Assembly: GCA_963772165.1 (NCBI GenBank)
Contig: CAVYWA010000010.1
Location: 45,496 to 109,495, forward strand
DNA length: 64,000 bases
Direction of reading: 5' to 3'
From: an uncultured Bacteroidota bacterium
GTDB lineage: Bacteria > Bacteroidota > Ignavibacteria > UBA10030 > UBA8401
Positions 2,501 to 53,146 of the stretch are shown piece by piece. The notes under the pieces were generated by a model. It was not told where the DNA came from. It searched no databases and worked only from the letters and a program-made list of their open reading frames with translations. Position 1 is the first letter of the stretch. Every line of letters begins with the position of its first letter. A program made the position numbers and the translations under genes.

Positions 2501-3682
2501 GTGACTAATACAATCAGGACCGGTATGTTTGAAAAAGAGACTGAACAACTTATCGCGACGGTCCGTCAGGCAACGATCGGCGAAACCAAAGCCATCGGCT
2601 TGAGGGAGATTTTCGAATCGAATATCCTTTCAAACGTGAAGGTGTTTTTCCGTGCTGAAGTTGAGTGGATGCTCGAGACGGAGCGAAAACCGGAACCGCG
2701 ACCGTCGAAATTCAACTATAATCTCCCCGAGATTGCAATGCTGCGCGAACAAACCAACGCGCTGCTCATCCACAATTTTATTTTTTCAAAAGCTGATTTC
2801 GAAGCAACGCTGGATAAATGCGTCCACTTTTTGCTGAATTATCTCTGCCGTCCCCAGTGGACGTTGAACAGTTTTCTTTTTGAGGAGTCGGCACGGGCTT
2901 CGACGCAGCAAATCCTGTTGAAGCTCCGATATTGCAGGGACTATGCATACTTCCCGGATATCCTCCGCAGCTATCTTCAACAACGCGGCGTTGGAGAGAT
3001 GACGCTGGAGGAAGGAAAAAACCTTATCGCACGAATCGATGCCGAGGTTGTGAAAAACCATTCGAGTATAGAACTCGCCAAGATAACGCTGCCGTTGTTC
3101 GATTTTGTTGCGTATGCGCGGGCACACAACATGAGCGCCACCGCCAAAACAGTTCCGGCCCGGGCATTGATGTACTTTTTCGAAGACAAAAAAATTGGAG
3201 CGATGCACGAGCGGCTATCGCGCGAGCGTGAAGTGAACAATGTCAAAGAATTGAGCTACGGTCAGCTCGTCAACCTTCTCGAAAAAGTCCGGAGCGGCGA
3301 CGAGCACGCTCACGTTTTTGATGAACATGCCGAACCCCTGCCGGCACTTGACGATATTTCTCTCGATATGCCATCGCTCTCCCAGATAGTACAGGAAGAG
3401 GAAATGACCACCCCGAAACCGTCAGAACCGCCGAAACCCACCCCTCCTCTTTTTTCGCTCGAAGAAGAACGCACCATCATCAAACATGTCTTCCACCAGA
3501 ACGAAGAGCAATTCCAAGCTGCGGTAAAAGAAGCGCTGGCCGCTGCAACATGGGAAGACGCGGCGCTTTCGATCGACCATTTCTTTCTGATGAACGATGT
3601 GGAAGCGTTCTCAAAAGAAGCAATCCTTTTTACAAATAGAGTGCAAAGCAGATTTAGCGAAGGAGTAAAGAATAAATCCTAA
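2501..3682 (+). CDS. hypothetical acidic protein (393 aa), no recognised domain
   Basis: long ORF in codirectional gene string; no motif recognised by eye. Confidence 0.4.
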   Translation: MTNTIRTGMFEKETEQLIATVRQATIGETKAIGLREIFESNILSNVKVFFRAEVEWMLETERKPEPRPSKFNYNLPEIAMLREQTNALLIHNFIFSKADFEATLDKCVHFLLNYLCRPQWTLNSFLFEESARASTQQILLKLRYCRDYAYFPDILRSYLQQRGVGEMTLEEGKNLIARIDAEVVKNHSSIELAKITLPLFDFVAYARAHNMSATAKTVPARALMYFFEDKKIGAMHERLSREREVNNVKELSYGQLVNLLEKVRSGDEHAHVFDEHAEPLPALDDISLDMPSLSQIVQEEEMTTPKPSEPPKPTPPLFSLEEERTIIKHVFHQNEEQFQAAVKEALAAATWEDAALSIDHFFLMNDVEAFSKEAILFTNRVQSRFSEGVKNKS

Positions 3683-3701
3683 ACTCTAATGTCTAAATCC
3701 T
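3677..3701. repeat. left arm of 25-bp inverted repeat (tcctaaactctaatgtctaaatcct) bracketing the four-helix-bundle gene
   Basis: reverse complement of 4102..4126 matches 24/25. Confidence 0.55.
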
Positions 3702-3721
3702 CATTCTTTACGGGGGGGCGG

Positions 3722-4084
3722 ATGAAAAAATACGATTTGGAAGATCGGACGTTAGGGTTTGCAAAAGAGGTCATTCGTTTGGTCAACAAGGTATCAAAAA
3801 CACTACCGAACGTGGAAATCGCAAGACAGCTTGTTCGCCCATCGGGGTCCGTGGGCGCCAATGACATAGAAGCAAATGAATCTCTCGGAGAAAAAGATTT
3901 TGCAATGAGAATTAAGATATGTCGAAAAGAAGTCAAGGAGAGCCGCTATTGGCTTCAACTTCTCGAAAGCACTCCGGATTTAAGTGACAGCCAAGCTCAT
4001 CTCATTCAGGAATCTACAGAGCTAATGAAAATATTTGGAGCGATTTTAGAAAAAATAAAACAAAGGCAGCAACCAAATGAGTAA
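3722..4084 (+). CDS. four-helix-bundle protein (23S rRNA intervening-sequence protein family, PF05635-like)
   Basis: ~120 aa; motifs LxFAKEVIRL...ARQLVRPSGSVGANDIEANES...SRYWLQL typical of the family; start taken at MKKYDLEDRTLGF. Confidence 0.6.
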   Translation: MKKYDLEDRTLGFAKEVIRLVNKVSKTLPNVEIARQLVRPSGSVGANDIEANESLGEKDFAMRIKICRKEVKESRYWLQLLESTPDLSDSQAHLIQESTELMKIFGAILEKIKQRQQPNE

Positions 4085-4101
4085 TCTGTCTTTGTGATTT
4101 T

Positions 4102-4126
4102 AGGATTTAGACATTAGAATTTAGGA
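4102..4126. repeat. right arm of 25-bp inverted repeat (aggatttagacattagaatttagga)
   Basis: pairs with 3677..3701. Confidence 0.55.
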
Positions 4127-4137
4127 TTTTAACATTT

Positions 4138-5127
4138 ATGTTTATCGATTCGGCAAAAATTTTTGTTCGATCCGGCAGCGGGGGCAACGGCATTATTCAT
4201 TGGCGTCGCGAAAAATACGTCCCGAAAGGCGGCCCTGACGGGGGAAACGGCGGCAAAGGAGGCAATGTCATTATCCGGGCAGAGAAGCAACTTACGACAC
4301 TTCTCGATTTCCGTTACAAGCGGCGATACATTGCACAAAACGGCAATCCGGGAGAAGGTTCAAATATGGAGGGACGATCAGCCCAGGATATTTTGATAAA
4401 GGTTCCGTGCGGAACGATCGTGAAAAACAGTATCACCGGCGATCTCATCGGCGACTTGGTCGACCACGGCACTGAAATTGTCGTTGCCAAAGGAGGACGC
4501 GGCGGAAAAGGAAATTCAGAATTCGCGACGTCGACCAACCAGGCACCGCGCATCTGTACTCCGGGCGAAGAAGGAAAAGAATTTAATCTTGATCTGGAGC
4601 TGAAACTTCTTGCAGATGTCGGATTGGTAGGGTTTCCGAATGCCGGAAAGTCGACTCTGATCTCTAAAATTTCGGCGGCAAAGCCGAAGATCGCCGATTA
4701 CCCTTTCACAACGCTTGTGCCGAACCTTGGGATGGTCTATTTTCAGGAAGGAAAAAGTTTTGTTGTCGCGGATATTCCGGGCCTCATCAAAGGCGCGCAC
4801 GAAGGCAAAGGACTTGGAACGCAATTTCTCCGGCACATCGAACGAACAAAAGTGCTCGTGTATCTGGTTGAATGTACCAGCCCTGACCCGAAAAAAGATT
4901 TCGCGACATTAGCGGGCGAACTGAAATCGTTCAACAAAGACTTACCGAAGAAGCCGACGCTTGTGGCGTTTACCAAGCTCGACATCGCCGACACAGCACT
5001 CCGCAAAGCTCTCAGAAAAATCAAGTTCCGCAAAGGAATTTCCGTGCATTTGATTTCTGCCGTAACAGGCGAAGGACTCGACGGACTGGTTGCCGCCATG
5101 TGGAAAGCACTGGAAAAGAAGAAGTAA
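4138..5127 (+). CDS. obg: GTPase Obg/CgtA
   Basis: N-terminal FIDSAKIFVRSGSGGNG...GGPDGGNGGKGG glycine-rich Obg fold, G-motifs GFPNAGKST, DIPGLI. Confidence 0.9.
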   Translation: MFIDSAKIFVRSGSGGNGIIHWRREKYVPKGGPDGGNGGKGGNVIIRAEKQLTTLLDFRYKRRYIAQNGNPGEGSNMEGRSAQDILIKVPCGTIVKNSITGDLIGDLVDHGTEIVVAKGGRGGKGNSEFATSTNQAPRICTPGEEGKEFNLDLELKLLADVGLVGFPNAGKSTLISKISAAKPKIADYPFTTLVPNLGMVYFQEGKSFVVADIPGLIKGAHEGKGLGTQFLRHIERTKVLVYLVECTSPDPKKDFATLAGELKSFNKDLPKKPTLVAFTKLDIADTALRKALRKIKFRKGISVHLISAVTGEGLDGLVAAMWKALEKKK

Positions 5128-6424: not shown

Positions 6425-8094
6425 ACCAACCAATGCGTAAGGGTGGCGTTATGTCTCTTGACAGCGATTTACAGTCAATTCAGGAAGTCCGGGAGCTTCT
6501 TACGAAAGCGAAGGAAGCGCAGCTTGCATTTCGCGCATATTCCCAGGAACAAGTCGACCGAATTGTGCAATCGATGGCAGATGCAGGCTTCGCCGAGGCC
6601 GAGCGTCTTGGACAAATGGCACACGAGGAAACGGGATTCGGCAAACCCGAGGATAAAAAAAAGAAGAATGAATTTGCAACGAAGCGAGTCTATGAATCGA
6701 TAAAAGATCTCAAGACCGTCGGCGTCATACGCGAAGACAAAGAAAAACAGATTGTCGAGATCGGTGAACCGATGGGTGTTGTCGCAGCATTAATCCCTTC
6801 CACCAATCCGACGTCGACAGCAATGTTTAAGGCGATTATTTCGGTGAAAGGCCGCAACGGGTTCGTCGCAAGCCCGCACCCCCGCGCAGCAAAATCAACG
6901 CTTGAAGCCGTACGGATTGTCTCGGAGGCTGCCGAGCGGGCTGGGGCGCCGCACGGATTGATCGCATGCATGTCGCTTCCTTCAATCGAGGGCACAAACG
7001 AATTAATGAGGCACAGGCTCACTGCGGTAATTCTCGCCACGGGGAGCAATCCGATGGTGCGCGCTGCCTACAGCTCGGGCAAGCCCGCACTCGGCGTCGG
7101 ATCCGGAAATGTTCCCGCGTTCATCGAACGCACGGCAAACATAAAAAAGGCCGTTGCAGATATTGTCTCCGGAAAAATGTTCGACTGGGGAGTCCTTTGT
7201 TCAACCGAATCGGGAGTCATCATCGATTCTCCGGTCAAACTCCAGGTGGTCGATGAGTTCAAAAAACTGAAAGGCTATTTTGTCAATCCCGATGAGAAGG
7301 AAAAACTCAGCCGGACAATGTTCGACCCGAAAGGTGCAATCAATCCGGATATCGTTGGTAAATCCCCTGCATTCATCGCGCACAAAGCCGGGTTTGAAGT
7401 CCCCGCGGAGACCTCGTGTTTAATTGTTGAGTTGCCCGACGTCGGAAAGGAGTACCCTCTTTCCCGTGAAAAATTATCACCGGTCCTTGCGCTGTTTACC
7501 GCAGACGGATGGCGCGAAGGCTGCGAACGATGTATCGAGATGCTGGAGTTCGGAGGATTAGGGCACACAATGGCGATTCATTCGTCGGACCGTGACATCA
7601 TTATGAAATTCGCCCTCGAAAAACCTGCATGCCGGATCCTCGTCAACACCCAAGCCGCGCTCGGCGCAGTCGGATATACCAATGAACTCCTTCCGTCGAT
7701 GACCTTAGGCCCGGGTACATTTGGGAAGTCGATCATTTCAGAAAACGTCTCCGCAAAGCATCTCATCAACATCAAACGGCTTGCTTTTGAGACGAGGCCG
7801 ATCAATAAGGAGACGAGAGACGGGACTCAGAACCCAAAACTCAGAACCCAGAACTCAGGACTCAGCACGCAGCACGCAGCACCTGCAATTCATAACGCCG
7901 TACCCGGAACCCCAACTCACAGTTGGATGGAAGAAATAGAGGAACGGATCCGATTGAAGGCTGGAAATCAGCCGCTCCATACCAAGCCTCACGTTGAAGA
8001 AGCAGTTTCTAAAGATGAAAACAAGGAGGCGAAATACGGAAATGGAATGACGATTGACGATGTCGAACGAGTGATGAAAGAATTCCAGAAGTAG
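6421..8094 (+). CDS. CoA-acylating aldehyde dehydrogenase (EutE/PduP-like) with ~100-aa low-complexity C-terminal extension
   Basis: ALDH-family core (~460 aa) with catalytic Cys region VLCSTESGV; start ATG overlaps ruvB stop (ATGA); C-terminal tail encoded by imperfect tandem ACTCAGAACCCA-type repeats. Confidence 0.7.
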
Positions 8095-8096
8095 TT

Positions 8097-8160
8097 AAAA
8101 GTTATAAGTGAAAAGTAAAAAAATAATCAGCACACCACTTTTCGCTTATAACTTTTCACT
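8097..8160 (+). terminator. long hairpin (20-bp stem, 20-nt loop) after aldehyde dehydrogenase, followed by T-rich cacttttaactt x2
   Basis: 8097..8116 aaaagttataagtgaaaagt pairs with 8137..8156 acttttcgcttataactttt (one G-U). Confidence 0.35.
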
Positions 8161-8184
8161 TTTAACTTATCACTTTTAACTTCC

Positions 8185-20484: not shown

Positions 20485-20491
20485 ACCCATA

Positions 20492-21185
20492 GATGACCGT
20501 CACCTTAAAGGTGACGGTCATCTATCATTGAACAAAACCGTTTTGATTTTCTCCCTTTCTTGTGGCACGTAATCTTCAACAAAACTCTTATAATTTTTTA
20601 AACCTCCAAACTGATGTAAAACTATCTGCAACGTGATAATGGGATCCAGCCGCAAACCGAAATATGTCCGGCAGCTGCTGTGCGGCCATTCTTCTGGTAA
20701 ATCGACCAAGCAAGCTCGAACGGGATTCAGGTGGATATAACGGGACAGATGAACCAAGTACAAGTCGTTATCGATATGCTTCATCTTGTATTTCCCTTCA
20801 AACAAATGTCCGCTTCGAGAACGTTCTTTGTTGATTGCTTTCGCATAACCATCGCATACATTTCTCATGAAACCTGAAATTCCGAAAGGTTCAAGCTGAT
20901 AGATAATGAAGTGAAAATGGTTCGGCATCAGGCAATATGCGATAATTTCTATTGAAGAAGGATTGTTTGCTTCCAACATTCGCTGCCGAAAATAGAGAAA
21001 GTTACGCTCATTAAAAAAGATTTCGTTCTTGTTAACGCCCCGATTATACACATGGAAAAATTCATCCGCCGATTGTAGATCCTTTGTTTTCGTTGACATG
21101 AATACTTCCCCCGAGTTAATTCAAAGCGACCATCGTTTTACGATGTGAAATCCAGATGACCGTCACCTTAAAGGTGACGGTCATC
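20492..21185. mobile_element. IS200/IS605-like element: Y1 transposase bounded by identical 31-bp perfect palindromes
   Basis: gatgaccgtcaccttaaaggtgacggtcatc at 20492..20522 and again at 21155..21185. Confidence 0.75.
20518..21099 (-). CDS. tnpA: IS200/IS605-family (RAYT-like) Y1 HUH transposase
   Basis: HVYNRG ... CLMPNHFHFII (HuH) ... RYIHLNPVRA (catalytic Tyr region); 193 aa. Confidence 0.8.
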   Translation of the reverse strand: MSTKTKDLQSADEFFHVYNRGVNKNEIFFNERNFLYFRQRMLEANNPSSIEIIAYCLMPNHFHFIIYQLEPFGISGFMRNVCDGYAKAINKERSRSGHLFEGKYKMKHIDNDLYLVHLSRYIHLNPVRACLVDLPEEWPHSSCRTYFGLRLDPIITLQIVLHQFGGLKNYKSFVEDYVPQEREKIKTVLFNDR

Positions 21186-21201
21186 TTATGGTAACGGCAA
21201 G

Positions 21202-28967: not shown

Positions 28968-30817
28968 TTATTCAACTCCTTCTCCGTCGAAATAATGACG
29001 TTGCTCGCCATTTCATAGATCTTGCTCTTTTCTTCCTGCCTGGAACTTGCCGGAGCGAATCGGGCAAACTCGCATGCTTCAAGGCATTCCTTTAAACGTG
29101 TAACAACGTCTTGCGAGATGGGTTTTCCTTCCAGCTGTTTCATGACATTTTCGATGGAAAGCTCCGCCCTGTCGATAAAGAGTTTGTCCGAAACGTAGGC
29201 CCAGAGCGCGCGAGAGATTTCCGCATAAAACGCTTCAGCGTTCTCCGAGCTTAACAGGACTTTTGCTTCCTTTAACTTTTTTGATGCGGTCTTCATCGCT
29301 TTACGGGATCGAAACGATGCAACGTCCGATAATTCCTTTAAAGTCTTTTGCCGGTACGTTGCGAGTCCGACGAAAGCCAGCAGCGGCACTATCGTGATGA
29401 TTGCCAGCGTCGCGAGCGGAATAACGTCTCCTCCTTTTCTGCGGAACGACCCGGCGTTCGTCTTGATGAAGCGAATATCCTGGTTTAACAGCTTGACATC
29501 CTCTTTCGAAATCCCGGAGACAATTTGCGGCGCCTCAGCACTTCCCTTCTCAACCGTGAGGTCGATGGCTCCCGATTTAAGAGCGACGTACTTTTCTTTC
29601 GCGGGGTCGAAGTATGAAAATTCAAGAGGCGGGATTCTTTTTTGTCCCGGGTAACGGGGGACCAGCAGCCACTCGAAGGTCTTAGAACCATTTACGACGC
29701 TCGTACTCCGGTCGATCGTCTCATTAACTTTTGGGTCGTATTTTTCAAAATCGTTGGAGACTTCAAGGTTCGGCGCTTCGAGAATCTTAATATTGCCGGT
29801 GCCGCCGATCGTCGCTTTCAGCGACAACGGCTCGTTTGTTTTTACCGTTGCGCTGCTGACACTCGTGTTGAGATTAAATTTTCCCACCGCCCCTTTGAAA
29901 GAAGCGGGGACATTATTTTTCGGCAGCGGGAGCACCGTAATTTTTACGGCAGGGCTTTTAATATTGATATTCGACGTTGCGACATTATTGAAGAATGGGT
30001 CATTGAAAAACTGGTCGAAGAAATCGTTCGTACGTTTACGGTTCTGCATTTGCACTTGGCAAATAATTTCCAGCGGATTAATTTCGAGCGTTCCCGACTG
30101 CGTCGGAAATAATGCGACCTTCTTCAGTAAGCCGGCCTGGTACTGCTTCCCGTTCACGACCTCCGTCGTCAATGATACTTGTTGCGGCACTGCAAGCTCT
30201 TCTCCCCAAAATCCCGTCATCGCAGGAAGTTTTTCGATCGTATAGTTCGTGATACGAACCCTGGTGTAGACCTTAAACGTGACAGTGACTTGCTCTCCGA
30301 GAAACACGCGCGAACGGTCGACGGTCGCGCGCAGAAAAAGATTGTCGCCGACCTGAACATTGGAGTCGGCATTCTGGCCCGCTGCCGCAGATTGCTTCGG
30401 CTTGGCTGCGGCTTTGACGACAGTGATTTCTATCGGCTGCGAAGAATACCGTTTCCCGCCCCTTTCAATGGTCGCCGCGCCGAGAGTAAGCTTTCCCGCT
30501 TCGCGAGGCTGCAGGACATAACTGTACGTCACCGAAGATGAGACAGAGCCGTTGACAATTTGAACGCTCGAAGACTGGTTGGGGCCGGAAAGCACCATGA
30601 ACTTGCCAAGGTCGGGCAGCTGGGGAATACTTCCACCCCCCATGCCGCCGCCGTTCAACGTCAATTCCAACGTAAACTGCTCATCCACAGCAACAGTGTT
30701 CTTATCGACCGATGCCGTAAACGAAACGTTCTGCGCAGCGAGCAATAAAGGAAGGGTCAACACCATCAGCCCGATCATCGACGAATAGCTTTTCACTTTT
30801 AACTTTTCACTTTTCAC
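28964..30817 (-). CDS. batD: BatD (oxygen-tolerance protein)
   Basis: 617 aa, signal peptide, single C-terminal TM near ...VIPLATLAIITIVPLLAFVGL; position in operon. Confidence 0.7.
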   Translation of the reverse strand: MKSEKLKVKSYSSMIGLMVLTLPLLLAAQNVSFTASVDKNTVAVDEQFTLELTLNGGGMGGGSIPQLPDLGKFMVLSGPNQSSSVQIVNGSVSSSVTYSYVLQPREAGKLTLGAATIERGGKRYSSQPIEITVVKAAAKPKQSAAAGQNADSNVQVGDNLFLRATVDRSRVFLGEQVTVTFKVYTRVRITNYTIEKLPAMTGFWGEELAVPQQVSLTTEVVNGKQYQAGLLKKVALFPTQSGTLEINPLEIICQVQMQNRKRTNDFFDQFFNDPFFNNVATSNINIKSPAVKITVLPLPKNNVPASFKGAVGKFNLNTSVSSATVKTNEPLSLKATIGGTGNIKILEAPNLEVSNDFEKYDPKVNETIDRSTSVVNGSKTFEWLLVPRYPGQKRIPPLEFSYFDPAKEKYVALKSGAIDLTVEKGSAEAPQIVSGISKEDVKLLNQDIRFIKTNAGSFRRKGGDVIPLATLAIITIVPLLAFVGLATYRQKTLKELSDVASFRSRKAMKTASKKLKEAKVLLSSENAEAFYAEISRALWAYVSDKLFIDRAELSIENVMKQLEGKPISQDVVTRLKECLEACEFARFAPASSRQEEKSKIYEMASNVIISTEKELNK

Positions 30818-30824
30818 TTGTCTA

Positions 30825-31550: not shown

Positions 31551-31595
31551 TGAAGCCCGTGCGAGAGTCGTGGTTCCAAGTTCATTGTTAATTGC

Positions 31596-32651
31596 TCATT
31601 GTTCTTTATCGACAGCTATTCCTCGAAATGGATTAATCTTTTCCAGCCATGGAATCTTTTTGTCGGACAAAAACACTTCGACCAGCAGCAACACCAGTGC
31701 TACTCCTATAAAATACTGAAATTGGTCCTCAAAATCAGTGAATTGTTTTGTCCCAAATTCAGTCTTCTGCAGCGCATTGACTTCCTTATAAATCGCATCC
31801 AGTTCATCCTGGTTGTTCGTTGCCCGAAAATACTTCCCGTTCCCGAGCGTCGCAATTTTTTCAAGCGTCGTTTCATCCAACTTTGTGAGAACAACGTTGC
31901 CGGCACGGTCCCGTTTGAAATCGACCTGATGCCCGTTTGCATCATAGATCGGAATCGGCGCGCCTGCGGGCGAACCCATGCCGATCGTATAAATGAGAAC
32001 ACCTTTTTTGCCCGCTTCTTCCGCCTTTGGAATGACGTCTCCCTGGTTATCCTCTCCGTCGGTGATGATGATGAGGACCTTTTTCGTCGGGGTGTCCCAA
32101 TTAAACGATTTCACCGCCTGATCCACCGCGGTCCCGATCGCTGTTCCCGGAGTCGGCACCGATTCGACATCGACGACATCTAAAAACAGACTGGCCGCGC
32201 TGTAATCTGTCGTCAACGGAAACTGCACGTAACTCTCGCCGGAGAAAATGATCAACCCGATCCTGTCGCCGCCAAGCCGGTCGATGAGATTGCCGATTTC
32301 ATATTTAGCTTTTGCGAGGCGGTTCGGTTTGACATCTTCCGCCTTCATCGAAAGAGAAACATCAAGCGCAATGAAAATATCGACCCCTTCCTGCTTCACT
32401 TCCTCCTGGCGTACGCCAAGCTGAGGGTTCGCCAGACCCACAACGATGAACGAGATTGCCGTCACCAACAACACAGACTTCATGACGCGTTTCACGCCGC
32501 TTGAATCCTCGGCAAGCCGCACAAACATCTCCGATGAGGAAAATTTTTTCCTTGCCTCTCTCCGCTTCCGGCCGACAAACCATAGGAATGCGGCGGTCAG
32601 CGGCACAAGCGCAAGCCAGTACAAATATTCAGGGTGAGCAAAACGGATCAT
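31596..32651 (-). CDS. batB: BatB (vWA domain, membrane-anchored)
   Basis: two N-terminal TMs then vWA: DIFIALDVSLSM (MIDAS DxSxS), TDGEDN. Confidence 0.75.
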   Translation of the reverse strand: MIRFAHPEYLYWLALVPLTAAFLWFVGRKRREARKKFSSSEMFVRLAEDSSGVKRVMKSVLLVTAISFIVVGLANPQLGVRQEEVKQEGVDIFIALDVSLSMKAEDVKPNRLAKAKYEIGNLIDRLGGDRIGLIIFSGESYVQFPLTTDYSAASLFLDVVDVESVPTPGTAIGTAVDQAVKSFNWDTPTKKVLIIITDGEDNQGDVIPKAEEAGKKGVLIYTIGMGSPAGAPIPIYDANGHQVDFKRDRAGNVVLTKLDETTLEKIATLGNGKYFRATNNQDELDAIYKEVNALQKTEFGTKQFTDFEDQFQYFIGVALVLLLVEVFLSDKKIPWLEKINPFRGIAVDKEQ

Positions 32652-35580: not shown

Positions 35581-35586
35581 TTTTTT

Positions 35587-35706
35587 CAATGAACAATCAT
35601 CAATGAACAATGATCAATGATCAATGGATGAAATGCTTTTCTTGTGTTGATTGTTCATTGATGATTGTTAATTGTTCATTGATGATTGTTAATTGTTCAT
35701 TGATCA
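35587..35706. repeat. imperfect long inverted repeat with internal 21-bp tandem repeat (ttgttcattgatgattgttaa x2) at moxR-DUF58 junction
   Basis: left arm 35587..35627 caatgaacaatcatcaatgaacaatgatcaatgatcaatgg; right arm 35648..35706; overlaps moxR stop codon. Confidence 0.6.
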
Positions 35707-36693
35707 TGGTACTTCGATTTTATTGAGAATCTCCTGCACAATATTCTCCGACGTCACTTCTTCCGCTTCCGCTTCGTATGTGACGGCAACGCGGTGGCGC
35801 AGCACGTCGAGGCTGACGGCGCGAACGTCTTCCGGGATCACATAGCCGCGCCGTTTGATAAAAGCGTATGCCTTTGCTCCCAGCGCAAGATTAATCGTTG
35901 CACGCGGCGACGCGCCGTAGCTGATTAATTGCGCGATGCCGGGAATCCCGTACTCCTTCGGGTTCCGTGTCGCAAAAACGATCTCGAGAATATACCGTTC
36001 AATTTTTTCGTCCATATAAATTTCCCCCATCACTCCCCGTGCCTTCATAATATCTTTCGGCGATATGACGGGTTTGACGTTCGGTTCTGTTCCGTTGACG
36101 TTTTGCCTCATGATTTGAAGCTCTTCTTCTTTCGTCGGGTAGTCGATCCTCACTTTGAGCATGAAACGATCGACCTGGGCTTCCGGCAGGGGATATGTCC
36201 CTTCCTGCTCGATCGGGTTTTGCGTCGCCAGCACAAGGAACGGTTCTTCAAGTTTGAACGTTTCTTCTCCTATGGTGACTTGCCGTTCCTGCATTGCTTC
36301 GAGCAACGCGCTCTGCACTTTTGCCGGTGAGCGGTTGATTTCATCGGCTAAAATGAAATTGGCAAAAATCGGCCCTTTCTTTGTTTGGAATTTCGAGTCC
36401 TTTTGATTGTAGATAAGGGTTCCGACCAGGTCGGCAGGGAGCAAATCGGGAGTAAACTGAATACGTTGGAATTTCGCCTGAATTGCTCCCGCGAGGGTTT
36501 TCACGGCCATCGTTTTCGCGAGACCGGGAACTCCTTCGAGAAGGATGTGCCCGTTGGCAAGCAAGCCGATGAGCAATCGCTCCACCATATTTTTCTGTCC
36601 AACAATAACTTTCCCGACTTCCAAAGTGAGCAGGTCGACAAACGCACTTTCGCGCTGGATCTTCTCGTTGATAGCCTTAATATCGTGCTCCAT
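35704..36693 (-). CDS. moxR: MoxR-family AAA+ ATPase
   Basis: Walker A GVPGLAKT, Walker B ILADEINR, 329 aa. Confidence 0.9.
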   Translation of the reverse strand: MEHDIKAINEKIQRESAFVDLLTLEVGKVIVGQKNMVERLLIGLLANGHILLEGVPGLAKTMAVKTLAGAIQAKFQRIQFTPDLLPADLVGTLIYNQKDSKFQTKKGPIFANFILADEINRSPAKVQSALLEAMQERQVTIGEETFKLEEPFLVLATQNPIEQEGTYPLPEAQVDRFMLKVRIDYPTKEEELQIMRQNVNGTEPNVKPVISPKDIMKARGVMGEIYMDEKIERYILEIVFATRNPKEYGIPGIAQLISYGASPRATINLALGAKAYAFIKRRGYVIPEDVRAVSLDVLRHRVAVTYEAEAEEVTSENIVQEILNKIEVP

Positions 36694-37279: not shown

Positions 37280-37500
37280 AGGTATTTTAGAATAAAGTTA
37301 TTGCAAGAAGAGAAGCAACAAAGTCCCCAAAGGATTCCTTACAGCGGGACAATCCCTTTATTCTTCAAAAGACCCCAGGTCGTGGGATCTTTTGAATCAA
37401 CGGTCATTGCGAGGCGTTTTTTGCCGAAGCAATCCCCATTAAACAAAAGGATTGCTTCGTCGCTCCGCTCCTCGCAATGACTTTATTCTTCAAAAGACCC
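37280..37500. repeat. mosaic of MITE/REP-like element fragments (copies E2a/E2b plus an inverted degenerate TIR piece) upstream of tRNA-Val
   Basis: 37321..37372 truncated copy; 37402..37500 near-complete copy ggtcattgcgagg ... ctcgcaatgactttattcttcaaaag. Confidence 0.6.
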
Positions 37501-37621
37501 CACGACCATTTGATTCTTTCTATAGCGGCGGATTTGTATCTTTGATAAATCACTGGCGCTTAGCCAGTCCCCGCCAAAAAGCGGCGGGACTTCGCTGGAG
37601 CTGCCTTCAAGATTTAAAAGC

Positions 37622-37696
37622 GGGCGCTTAGCTCAGCTGGTTCAGAGCGTACGCCTCACACGCGTAAGGTCGCAGGTTCGATCCCCGCAGCGCCCA
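37622..37696 (+). tRNA. tRNA-Val (anticodon CAC)
   Basis: cloverleaf folded by eye: acceptor GGGCGCT/AGCGCCC, D-arm GCTC/GAGC, anticodon stem TACGC/GCGTA loop CTCACAC, T-loop TTCGATC (one A-C mismatch in T-stem), discriminator A, no encoded CCA. Confidence 0.85.
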
Positions 37697-52917: not shown

Positions 52918-53146
52918 TATTTTTTTCATCTCGTTCCCGATGCCCTGTTGGGAACGAGATGAAAACTTTCGCGTCTTTTCGTGAGCTTAGTGGATTGTTT
53001 GCCGTTCTGCATATATCTCGTTCCCAATCTCCGATGGGGAACGAGATAAATAACTATGCATACGAAAACACCCGAATGTTTTTTAGGGGCAGCGATCTGC
53101 AGAAATACAATTTTTCCGTGCACTTCGTGAGCTTAGTAGATTGCTT
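52918..53146. repeat. structured repeat block: two hairpins with conserved 11-bp stems (A 52918..52950, A' 53005..53037) interleaved with two 33-bp direct repeats (B 52968..53000, B' 53114..53146)
   Basis: stems atctcgttccc/gggaacgagat identical, loops differ; B units ttcgtgagcttagtRgattgYttgcYgttctgc. Confidence 0.55.

Follow-up and report, generated by a model that had tools for sequence, protein, structure and literature searches.

A four-helix-bundle gene between inverted heptamer arrays at the hyp385–obg junction of an uncultured Bacteroidota bacterium: a candidate intervening-sequence-type cassette outside rRNA

RESULTS

Architecture of the hyp385–obg locus

We analysed a 64,000-nucleotide stretch of DNA (hereafter the window) from an uncultured Bacteroidota bacterium (assembly GCA_963772165.1, contig CAVYWA010000010.1, positions 45,496–109,495), in which a small gene of the PF05635 four-helix-bundle family, also known as the 23S rRNA intervening sequence (IVS) protein family, lies between two inverted arrays of 7-nt repeats and is wedged between the gene of a 385-aa hypothetical protein (hyp385) and obg. 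The two arrays together with everything that they enclose are referred to as the cassette. The features of the locus are:

2525–3682, + strand: upstream gene hyp385, whose 385-aa product is lineage-specific and matches no Pfam family; it bounds the insertion site on the left
3674–3701, + strand: left arm, four tandem heptamers (AAATCCT AAACTCT AATGTCT AAATCCT) with a CTAA core plus a 3-nt variable spacer
3702–3721, + strand: 5′ spacer from the left arm to the start codon, CATTCTTTACGGGGGGGCGG; p-distance among orthologues 0.41
3722–4084, + strand: four-helix-bundle protein gene, 120 aa plus stop codon; PF05635/TIGR02436, homologue of Protein Data Bank (PDB) entry 2RLD
4085–4101, + strand: 3′ spacer from the stop codon to the right arm; p-distance among orthologues 0.31
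4102–4129, + strand: right arm, four inverted heptamers (AGGATTT AGACATT AGAATTT AGGATTT) with a TTAG core
4138–5127, + strand: downstream gene obg, with GTP1_OBG and MMR_HSR1 domains; right boundary of the insertion site

An inverted-repeat search of the window revealed that the two arms, 28 nt each and 400 nt apart, are complementary at 27 of 28 positions. The inverted repeat proposed in an earlier reading of the letters alone (the sequence-only reading; 3677–3701 and 4102–4126, 24 of 25 positions) is real and slightly longer. That reading had also placed the upstream stop codon in the left arm and the end of the right arm 11 bp before the obg start, and correctly so: the TAA of hyp385 (3680–3682) lies within the left arm and 11 bp separate position 4126 from the ATG at 4138, the extended right arm (end 4129) leaving a gap of 8 bp. 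With up to three mismatches allowed, the arm sequence was found at just two places in the window, and two matches occurred in none of 100 shuffled sequences. What the sequence-only reading overlooked is the heptamer substructure of the arms, which is their most informative feature. The right-arm array was delimited by Tandem Repeats Finder (TRF) as a period-7 repeat at 4099–4129, with degenerate units reaching 4136, and the heptamers of the arms were also recovered as direct-repeat families D1 and D3 in a repeat search of the window. The whole cassette (3674–4129) measures 456 nt, has a GC content of 40% compared with 49% for the window, and is present in a single copy in the window.

The IVS-like stem–loop organization suggested earlier was borne out by RNA folding of a 486-nt transcript, in which the terminal stem was closed in both the minimum-free-energy (MFE) and the centroid folds, with a z-score of −3.5. 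No terminator-like site was detected on the + strand between the upstream gene, the cassette and obg. A scan for sigma-70 promoters returned weak matches inside the right arm, to which no weight was given, as Bacteroidota promoters differ from the sigma-70 consensus. No rRNA was found in the window, and an Rfam scan of it gave a single tRNA.

Between the arms lies, as had been claimed, a single open reading frame (ORF) of about 120 codons. Its product matches PF05635 (E 2e-11, 44.5 bits against a gathering cut-off of 33.8), the only Pfam family found in it, as well as TIGR02436 ‘four helix bundle protein’ (E 7.5e-17, 61.5 bits against a cut-off of 24) and PDB entry 2RLD (E 9e-12, and 5e-18 with a profile), which establishes its family membership. 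The conserved start is the ATG at 3722 (120 aa); an alternative ATG at 3689 within the left arm, chosen in one gene call and giving 131 aa, is missing from relatives. Position 48 is Asp in the window protein and Tyr in at least 90% of 33 homologues. No match of the protein to the PADLOC anti-phage defence families was found.

History of the insertion site

Cassette proteins 80–97% identical to the window copy were found in a conserved gene order, TPR–hyp385–IVP–obg–ruvB–aldDH (TPR, tetratricopeptide repeat; IVP, intervening-sequence protein; aldDH, aldehyde dehydrogenase), and all of them have the arms. This order with its arms was observed in loci L003, L007, L008–L013, L014–L016, L018, L024 and L026; the syntenic relatives carry the gene together with the repeats. 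The sequence-only reading had described the gene as wedged between two unrelated conserved genes, and the stop-to-start junction of hyp385 and obg is indeed filled by the cassette.

An empty site was searched for by using the upstream protein to scan genomes, one from each species, which returned 12 loci, without exception in metagenome-assembled genomes (MAGs) labelled Bacteroidota, Bacteroidetes or Chitinophagaceae. In six of the 12 (L019–L023 and L025, with upstream proteins 49–73% identical to that of the window) hyp is followed directly by obg without a cassette. A seventh, L017 (82% identical), has the gene deleted and retains the right arm at 41 of 48 positions. The remaining loci (L014, L015, L016, L018 and L024; 81–89% identical) have the cassette in the hyp–obg spacer, and all relatives with an upstream protein at least 81% identical have both cassette and arms at this site except L017, which is a deletion remnant. 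Right-arm heptamers (20 of 22 positions) also lie upstream of obg in L022, whose upstream protein is 67% identical and which has no cassette. For the L017 and L022 spacers, gapped local alignment with the cassette gave scattered spurious blocks, and contiguous right-arm blocks alone were used. We take the insertion suggested by the sequence-only reading as established. Because the distant relatives lack it, the cassette is an old insertion that has been inherited vertically and occasionally lost, and the comparison of these loci places its arrival exactly at the hyp385–obg stop-to-start junction, before the diversification of one clade of uncultured Bacteroidota.

Other elements occupy the same spacer. 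In L003 (3461–4456; equivalent to L018, chromosome OY970334.1) an insertion sequence (IS) element encoding a 331-aa protein with HTH_38 and rve integrase domains lies between the right arm and obg, and the distant, cassette-less loci L019 (4155–4343) and L022 (4149–4379) contain a different inverted-repeat element of ~110 nt, made up of TTGCCAC, heptamer-like units (CACTAAG/ACTCAAAG) and GTGGCAA. The hyp–obg spacer seems to attract hairpin elements repeatedly.

Homologous cassettes in metagenomes

Scanning metagenomes with 33 aligned homologues as the query gave 80 loci of 57–80% identity, and ~70 of these homologues lie in cassettes with matching termini. The repeats were present in the orthologues, in the metagenome homologues and in other subfamilies of PF05635 (see below), so that they accompany the other copies too. 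Self-identity peaked at lags of 7, 14 and 21 nt in both flanks and showed no such peaks in the gene or in distant flanks. The consensus of the cassettes is 5′-AAATC-(CKAAnnn)x3-4-CKAAACAA...ATG...stop...TTGTTTMG-(nnnTTMG)x3-4-GATTT-3′. The terminus AAATC-(CKAAnnn)n was identified in 58 metagenome cassettes, mostly with four cores per side and with a median size of 463 bp, and the sequence beyond the termini is unrelated from locus to locus. The heptamer-periodic inner arm of most members includes the start codon and the codons next to it; in the window's clade this inner part is replaced, the 5′ spacer 3702–3721 standing in its place. Two controls were uninformative as such. For the repeat score, a null built across loci did not serve to estimate chance, as the arms are alike between loci, a failure that exposed the shared termini, and the reversed 3′ end made a poor folding control, low-complexity arms remaining quasi-complementary. 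The closed-stem count alone was therefore used: at least 20 terminal base pairs formed in the folds of 56 of 59 distinct cassettes. In a check for 23S rRNA hosts, none of the 105 loci examined had the conserved 23S motif.

The cassettes are placed at the level of the transcript. Same-strand neighbours were found upstream at 52 of 60 loci and downstream at 50 of 63, and in 33 of 34 pairs of co-directional neighbours the cassette has their direction too. The upstream stop codon lies a median of 5 nt before the left terminus and falls inside it at 11 of 42 loci; the next downstream ATG lies a median of 20 nt past the right terminus. Stop codons of the upstream gene inside the element occur at offsets of 2, 9, 16 and 23 nt from the left terminus, which are successive CTAA cores. 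Since 7 cannot be divided by 3, every frame receives a stop once TAA or TGA is present in at least three units. Many unit types, although not all, contain a stop, and none was found in CGAA-class, AATTCAA or GTCGGAA units. Sites wedged in this way include fabA–fabF, etfB–etfA, araD–araA, hsdS–hsdR and a resistance–nodulation–division (RND) adaptor–permease pair.

The same arms occur in MAGs of other labels. A Nitrospirota-labelled MAG has the cassette between fabA-like and ketoacyl-synthase genes, and a KSB1-labelled MAG has it between etfB and etfA together with a truncated tandem copy; their proteins are 63–66% identical to that of the window, and a protein 68% identical, again with the same arms, was found in one Euryarchaeota-labelled MAG. 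Together with the low GC content of the window cassette, these occurrences point to probable horizontal spread. Truncated tandem cassette copies and gene-less hairpins of left-plus-right arrays adjoin intact cassettes at L108 (2200–2500) and in the upstream flanks of L032, L047, L059 and L112, which suggests that cassettes have repeatedly inserted at existing arrays or recombined with them.

Heptamer arms in other PF05635 subfamilies

The Bacteroides 2RLD subfamily is approximately 31–33% identical to the window protein, and in Bacteroides thetaiotaomicron a heptamer-armed cassette with 4 x AATTGAC surrounds the gene of the crystallized protein 2RLD itself, BT_0352, which lies between araD and araA. 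The arms of this subfamily are 4 x AATTGAC and 4 x GTCAATT (31 nt, 94–97% complementary and ~420 nt apart), and its sites are araD–araA and the junction of an aminotransferase gene with a 3-deoxy-D-arabino-heptulosonate 7-phosphate (DAHP) synthase gene. For 12 of 15 plasmid-borne homologues of cultured organisms, the gene is flanked by inverted arms 22 nt or longer with the strongest self-lag at 7. The heptamers of the other subfamilies are:

AATTCAA: Nostoc flagelliforme and Aulosira
GTCGGAR: N. punctiforme and N. commune
AATTCGT: Nostoc C052 and Dolichospermum
AAAAGTA: Anabaena and Nostoc, between cas2 and cas1
AATCCCC and AATCGTA: Planktothrix
GATGAAK: Chlorohelix (Chloroflexota)
ACCAGTK: Euhalothece
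degenerate heptamer: Monoglobus (Bacillota), between hsdS and hsdR

Nearest-neighbour proteins share a heptamer in every case, yet proteins 70–77% identical may have unrelated ones (GTCGGAA compared with AATTCGT). The comparison therefore indicates that the constants of the class are the period of 7, about four units per arm, their inversion and a distance of ~400–430 nt between the arms, the unit sequence itself being free. The same architecture was found in well over 80 independent loci. The window cassette has the layout of the class, with about four 7-nt units per side, inverted, in a stop-to-start spacer and co-oriented with both neighbours.

PF05635 cassettes between cas2 and cas1, or adjoining cas1, were observed in Anabaena, Nostoc and Pseudanabaena plasmids (L121, L125 and L129). 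A large clustering study lists ‘23S rRNA IVP’ among CRISPR-associated proteins (PMC10910872), and the cas-adjacent cassettes may explain this apparently spurious listing of the family.

Selection on the gene and its arms

Among orthologues the ratio of non-synonymous to synonymous substitution rates (dN/dS) is mostly 0.05–0.16, and 0.35 for the closest pair (window and L007). The p-distance of the arms is 0.13–0.15 (left arm 0.13) and that of the CTAA/TTAG cores 0.07, compared with 0.36 at third codon positions and 0.31–0.41 in the internal spacers, which evolve at the third-position rate; the arms are thus 2.5 times and the cores five times slower than third codon positions. A frameshift and the loss of the start disrupt the ORF in L014, and an in-frame stop does so in L016 and L026. 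Judging from the substitution patterns, purifying selection acts on the ORF and on the cores of the arms. The window locus is typical of the class and slightly decayed.

Gene-less heptamer arrays and other repeats in the window

Heptamers occur elsewhere in the window without a PF05635 gene. At 8093–8182 there is a gene-less heptamer hairpin with arms of ~29 nt, 90% complementary, and a 31-nt loop, which begins at the aldehyde dehydrogenase stop codon; its units (AGTTAAA AGTTATA AGTGAAA AGTAAAA, inverse ACTTTTC/ACTTTTA) resemble the AAAAGTA arms of the Anabaena and Nostoc plasmid loci L121 and L125. A large gene-less hairpin at 35586–35707, built of TCAATGA/ACAATGA units in 5.9 copies on one side and 9 on the other, with 40-nt arms 90% complementary, fills the spacer from the stop codon of the minus-strand ORF 35704–36693 to the start of the next minus-strand gene (~35581). 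Direct arrays of the same two unit families as these hairpins lie at 30789–30819 (CTTTTCA x4.4) and 31580–31604 (GTTCATT x3.6), both in stop-to-start spacers of co-oriented minus-strand genes. Within a coding sequence (CDS), that of the 557-aa aldehyde dehydrogenase, eight tandem heptamers (CAGAACC/CAGAACT/CAGCACG; 7828–7883) form part of a C-terminal linker, and the length of this protein varies among orthologues (548, 554 and 557 aa).

At 20489–21188, a 193-aa ORF for an IS200-like Y1 transposase (PF01797, E 2.9e-9; minus strand, 20518–21099) lies between two 33-nt palindromes, AGATGACCGTCACCTTAAAGGTGACGGTCATCT, which is the classic layout of a repetitive extragenic palindrome (REP) with its REP-associated tyrosine transposase (RAYT). 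Imperfect inverted repeats were also observed at 52922–53053 (39 nt, 77% complementary) and at 37289–37507 (pairs of 35, 33 and 19 nt), the latter just upstream of the tRNA at 37622–37696.

DISCUSSION

Interpretation and alternatives

The reading that we favour, with a probability of about 0.6, is that the window contains an IVS-type cassette outside rRNA, which would be read through with its host operon and whose arms would form a stem of the RNase III type. Its layout is four tandem heptamers, a PF05635 gene that apparently lacks a promoter and the same four heptamers inverted. With no apparent promoter or terminator of its own, such a cassette would be transcribed by read-through from the host operon; the arrays would then pair in the transcript to give a stem of at least 28 bp around the ORF, and RNase III may cut this stem as it does in the IVSs of Coxiella and Leptospira, freeing the cassette RNA and keeping the flanking cistrons usable. 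Insertions between tightly coupled genes might be tolerated because the cut would leave those cistrons usable. For the origin of new copies, recombination with resident gene-less heptamer hairpins would be the simplest candidate. Both the cleavage at the hyp385–obg locus and the mode of spread are what we infer.

A number of observations weigh against this reading, among them the single copy of the cassette in the window. Among eight orthologues 85% of the cells pair, covariation is not above that of shuffles, and most arm substitutions break pairs. Over 33 metagenome cassettes, the complementarity of the variable triplets is 0.42 within a locus compared with 0.48 between loci; own-arm duplexes are no more stable than those with swapped arms of the same class (p = 0.74 and 0.06), and wobble-type (G·U) mismatches show no strand bias (71 compared with 77). 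There is no positive evidence that pairing, as opposed to the repeat motif, is selected; the arm pattern is what a mobile element with conserved ends would show, and it is equally compatible with an RNA stem and with a DNA- or protein-binding role. Alignment of 58 junctions, made without a pristine filled/empty pair to fix their exact positions, showed no target-site duplication. At the hyp385–obg site, a close relative with an intact empty allele is likewise lacking, L017 being a remnant, and the right-arm-like heptamers before obg in the distant L022 mean that the array may predate the gene there.

Part of this evidence would suit arms that act as DNA, namely as inverted arrays of a protein-binding motif comparable with the sub-terminal repeats of transposons or with REP/RAYT, self-complementarity being a by-product; the binder might be the ring-forming four-helix-bundle protein of the cassette or a host factor with a part in moving, copying or maintaining it. 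In keeping with such a role, the 4-nt cores are conserved and the 3-nt spacers drift uncompensated, same-class arms are interchangeable between loci, wobble-type mismatches are unbiased, and the T/G position of the core varies in step between left and right arms (r = 0.82; of 69, 52 were concordant and five discordant). The sharing of a heptamer by nearest-neighbour proteins points the same way, as do the RAYT gene flanked by palindromes in the same window, an analogous layout, and the five chains in the 2RLD entry and the homopentameric Xanthomonas homologue (PMC4990558), set beside four to five units per arm. However, unrelated heptamers at 70–77% protein identity speak against tight sequence recognition, a 120-aa helical bundle has no recognizable catalytic domain and no PADLOC match, and the missing target-site duplication counts against this role as well. 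The co-orientation in 33 of 34 pairs and the exact filling of stop-to-start junctions are more easily explained at the transcript level, where RNase III cleavage has been demonstrated in the Coxiella relative (PMC4990558). On balance we regard a DNA role of the arms as unlikely.

It is also conceivable, although we would put it among the weaker explanations, that the hairpin is primarily an operon-spacer element of the host, a gene-less hairpin of 7-bp repeats similar to the cyanobacterial short tandemly repeated repetitive (STRR) sequences, that it affects the stability of the mRNA or the translational coupling of obg, and that the gene is a passenger which entered the loop by array recombination and did not bring the arms with it. 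Gene-less arrays do fill other spacers of the window (8093–8181, 35586–35707, 30789–30819 and 31580–31604), right-arm heptamers stand directly before obg in the gene-less L017 and the distant L022, gene-less hairpins of the cassette's own heptamer family adjoin cassettes in L047 and L059, and cyanobacteria have STRR hairpins in the hupS–hupL spacer (PMC2670836). Yet the same termini accompany the gene into dozens of unrelated contexts in several phyla, heptamer identity tracks the protein clade and not the host, the other heptamer arrays of the window are built of units unlike those of the cassette, and L017 is most simply a deletion derivative, as the rest of its clade has the full cassette. 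A chance match, or an ordinary intrinsic terminator or attenuator next to an unremarkable resident ORF, is refuted. The region is AT-rich and of low complexity, and the 10-mer TTTAGGATTT, with one mismatch allowed, is no commoner in the window than in shuffles, which might have pointed to chance; however, none of the 100 shuffles contained two 28-mer matches, the arms are 400 nt apart, unlike those of a short-loop terminator, with no terminator-like site on the + strand, and they are far better conserved than synonymous sites in an architecture that recurs in more than 80 independent loci.

Comparison with known systems

The cassette resembles the 23S rRNA IVSs of Leptospira, Coxiella burnetii and Xanthomonas in encoding a PF05635 protein and in size (456 nt compared with 428 nt in Coxiella). 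In Coxiella, one mismatch and a bulge interrupt the 28-bp stem of the IVS (PMC4990558), and here too a terminal 28-bp stem with one mismatch encloses the ORF (window arms 27/28). The Coxiella IVS contains two or three GACAGAT repeats and a degenerate one before the start codon of S23p, the first repeat being the site of the RNase III cut (PMC4990558). Common to both are a 5′ arm with tandem heptamers that adjoin the start codon and vary in number, and decay of the ORF in some lineages. Unlike the 23S IVSs, the window cassette lies between protein-coding genes and not in helix 45 or 25 of 23S rRNA. The origin of the Coxiella IVS has been stated as unknown, and its ORF is considered untranslated by those authors (PMC4990558), whereas the window ORF is under purifying selection; RNase III cutting was demonstrated for Coxiella and is transferred to the present locus by analogy.

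Heptamer repeats without genes have been described before. Hairpins of 7-bp STRRs lie between hupS and hupL in cyanobacteria, with unknown function (PMC2670836), and TAACTGA heptanucleotide repeats stand upstream of start codons in marine Beggiatoaceae (PMC4679880). Like the cassette arms, these are tandem 7-nt units in intergenic spacers near stop or start codons and are capable of forming hairpins, and repeats of the STRR kind flank PF05635 genes in Nostocales, Planktothrix and Euhalothece plasmids. In the window the likeness is one of form only (TRF period 7 at 4099–4129), the host being a Bacteroidota relative and not a cyanobacterium, and the units not being the named STRR1–3 sequences, and both STRR and TAACTGA repeats were described as gene-less, unlike the cassette. 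Among open-access papers we found none, other than that on the Coxiella IVS, linking PF05635 genes to heptamer arrays, and none tying STRR or TAACTGA repeats to PF05635 genes or to inverted arrays that enclose an ORF; a literature match to ‘BT0352’ turned out to be an unrelated accession number.

Similarities to several classes of mobile element were also considered. Like the combination of REPs, or of bacterial interspersed mosaic elements (BIMEs), with a RAYT (REPtron), the cassette is a single small gene between inverted copies of a short structured repeat that is also found gene-less in spacers. A RAYT, however, is a nuclease of the HUH/Y1 type, whereas the cassette protein is a four-helix bundle without a known catalytic motif, and REPs are single palindromes and not period-7 arrays. 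With miniature inverted-repeat transposable elements (MITEs) and other elements bounded by terminal inverted repeats it shares the short, discrete form, the conserved terminal inverted sequences, the many unrelated sites and the gene-less derivatives; its termini, in contrast, are tandem heptamer arrays, it carries a conserved and selected ORF that is not a transposase, no transposase being found in the cassette, and no target-site duplication is seen. Integron cassettes are likewise promoter-less, co-oriented single ORFs with imperfect inverted repeats that are expressed by read-through, and they are sometimes tandem or truncated, as here in L032 and L108. This reading was rejected on anatomy: the ORF is enclosed by the inverted repeat, where an integron cassette would have a single 3′ attC, the sites are scattered operon spacers and not one platform, and no integrase or attI was found among the neighbouring genes. 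The Avd protein of diversity-generating retroelements (DGRs) is pentameric and binds nucleic acids. It belongs, or is closely related, to the PF05635 four-helix-bundle family (PMC10053308). A DGR reading was also rejected, as the neighbours (TPR, hyp385, obg, ruvB and aldDH) have no reverse transcriptase domain; template and variable repeats were not searched for.

Implications for the PF05635 family

The class of cassettes described here, and the link that it makes between rRNA IVSs, STRR-type repeats and PF05635, appear to be undescribed. The source of ORF-bearing rRNA IVSs and the role of their ORF have been open questions since the early 1990s, and STRR repeats have been unexplained since 1990. 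The present results make the rRNA IVS one habitat of a much larger class, whose cassettes lie between coupled genes, including etfB–etfA, araD–araA, hsdS–hsdR and cas2–cas1, in at least five named bacterial phyla, and inverted period-7 arms provide a simple rule for annotating such inserts. A more speculative idea, to which we give little credence at present, is that PF05635 proteins and heptamer arrays are a two-part system analogous to RAYT and REP, in which a pentameric ring would bind, measure or template four to five heptamers. If this were true, gene-less spacer hairpins, STRR repeats and ORF-bearing 23S IVSs would be products of one mechanism, which leaves the unit sequence free and fixes period, number and inversion. 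The cassette of B. thetaiotaomicron makes RNase III release, recognition of the repeats and the origin of the arms testable in a tractable organism.

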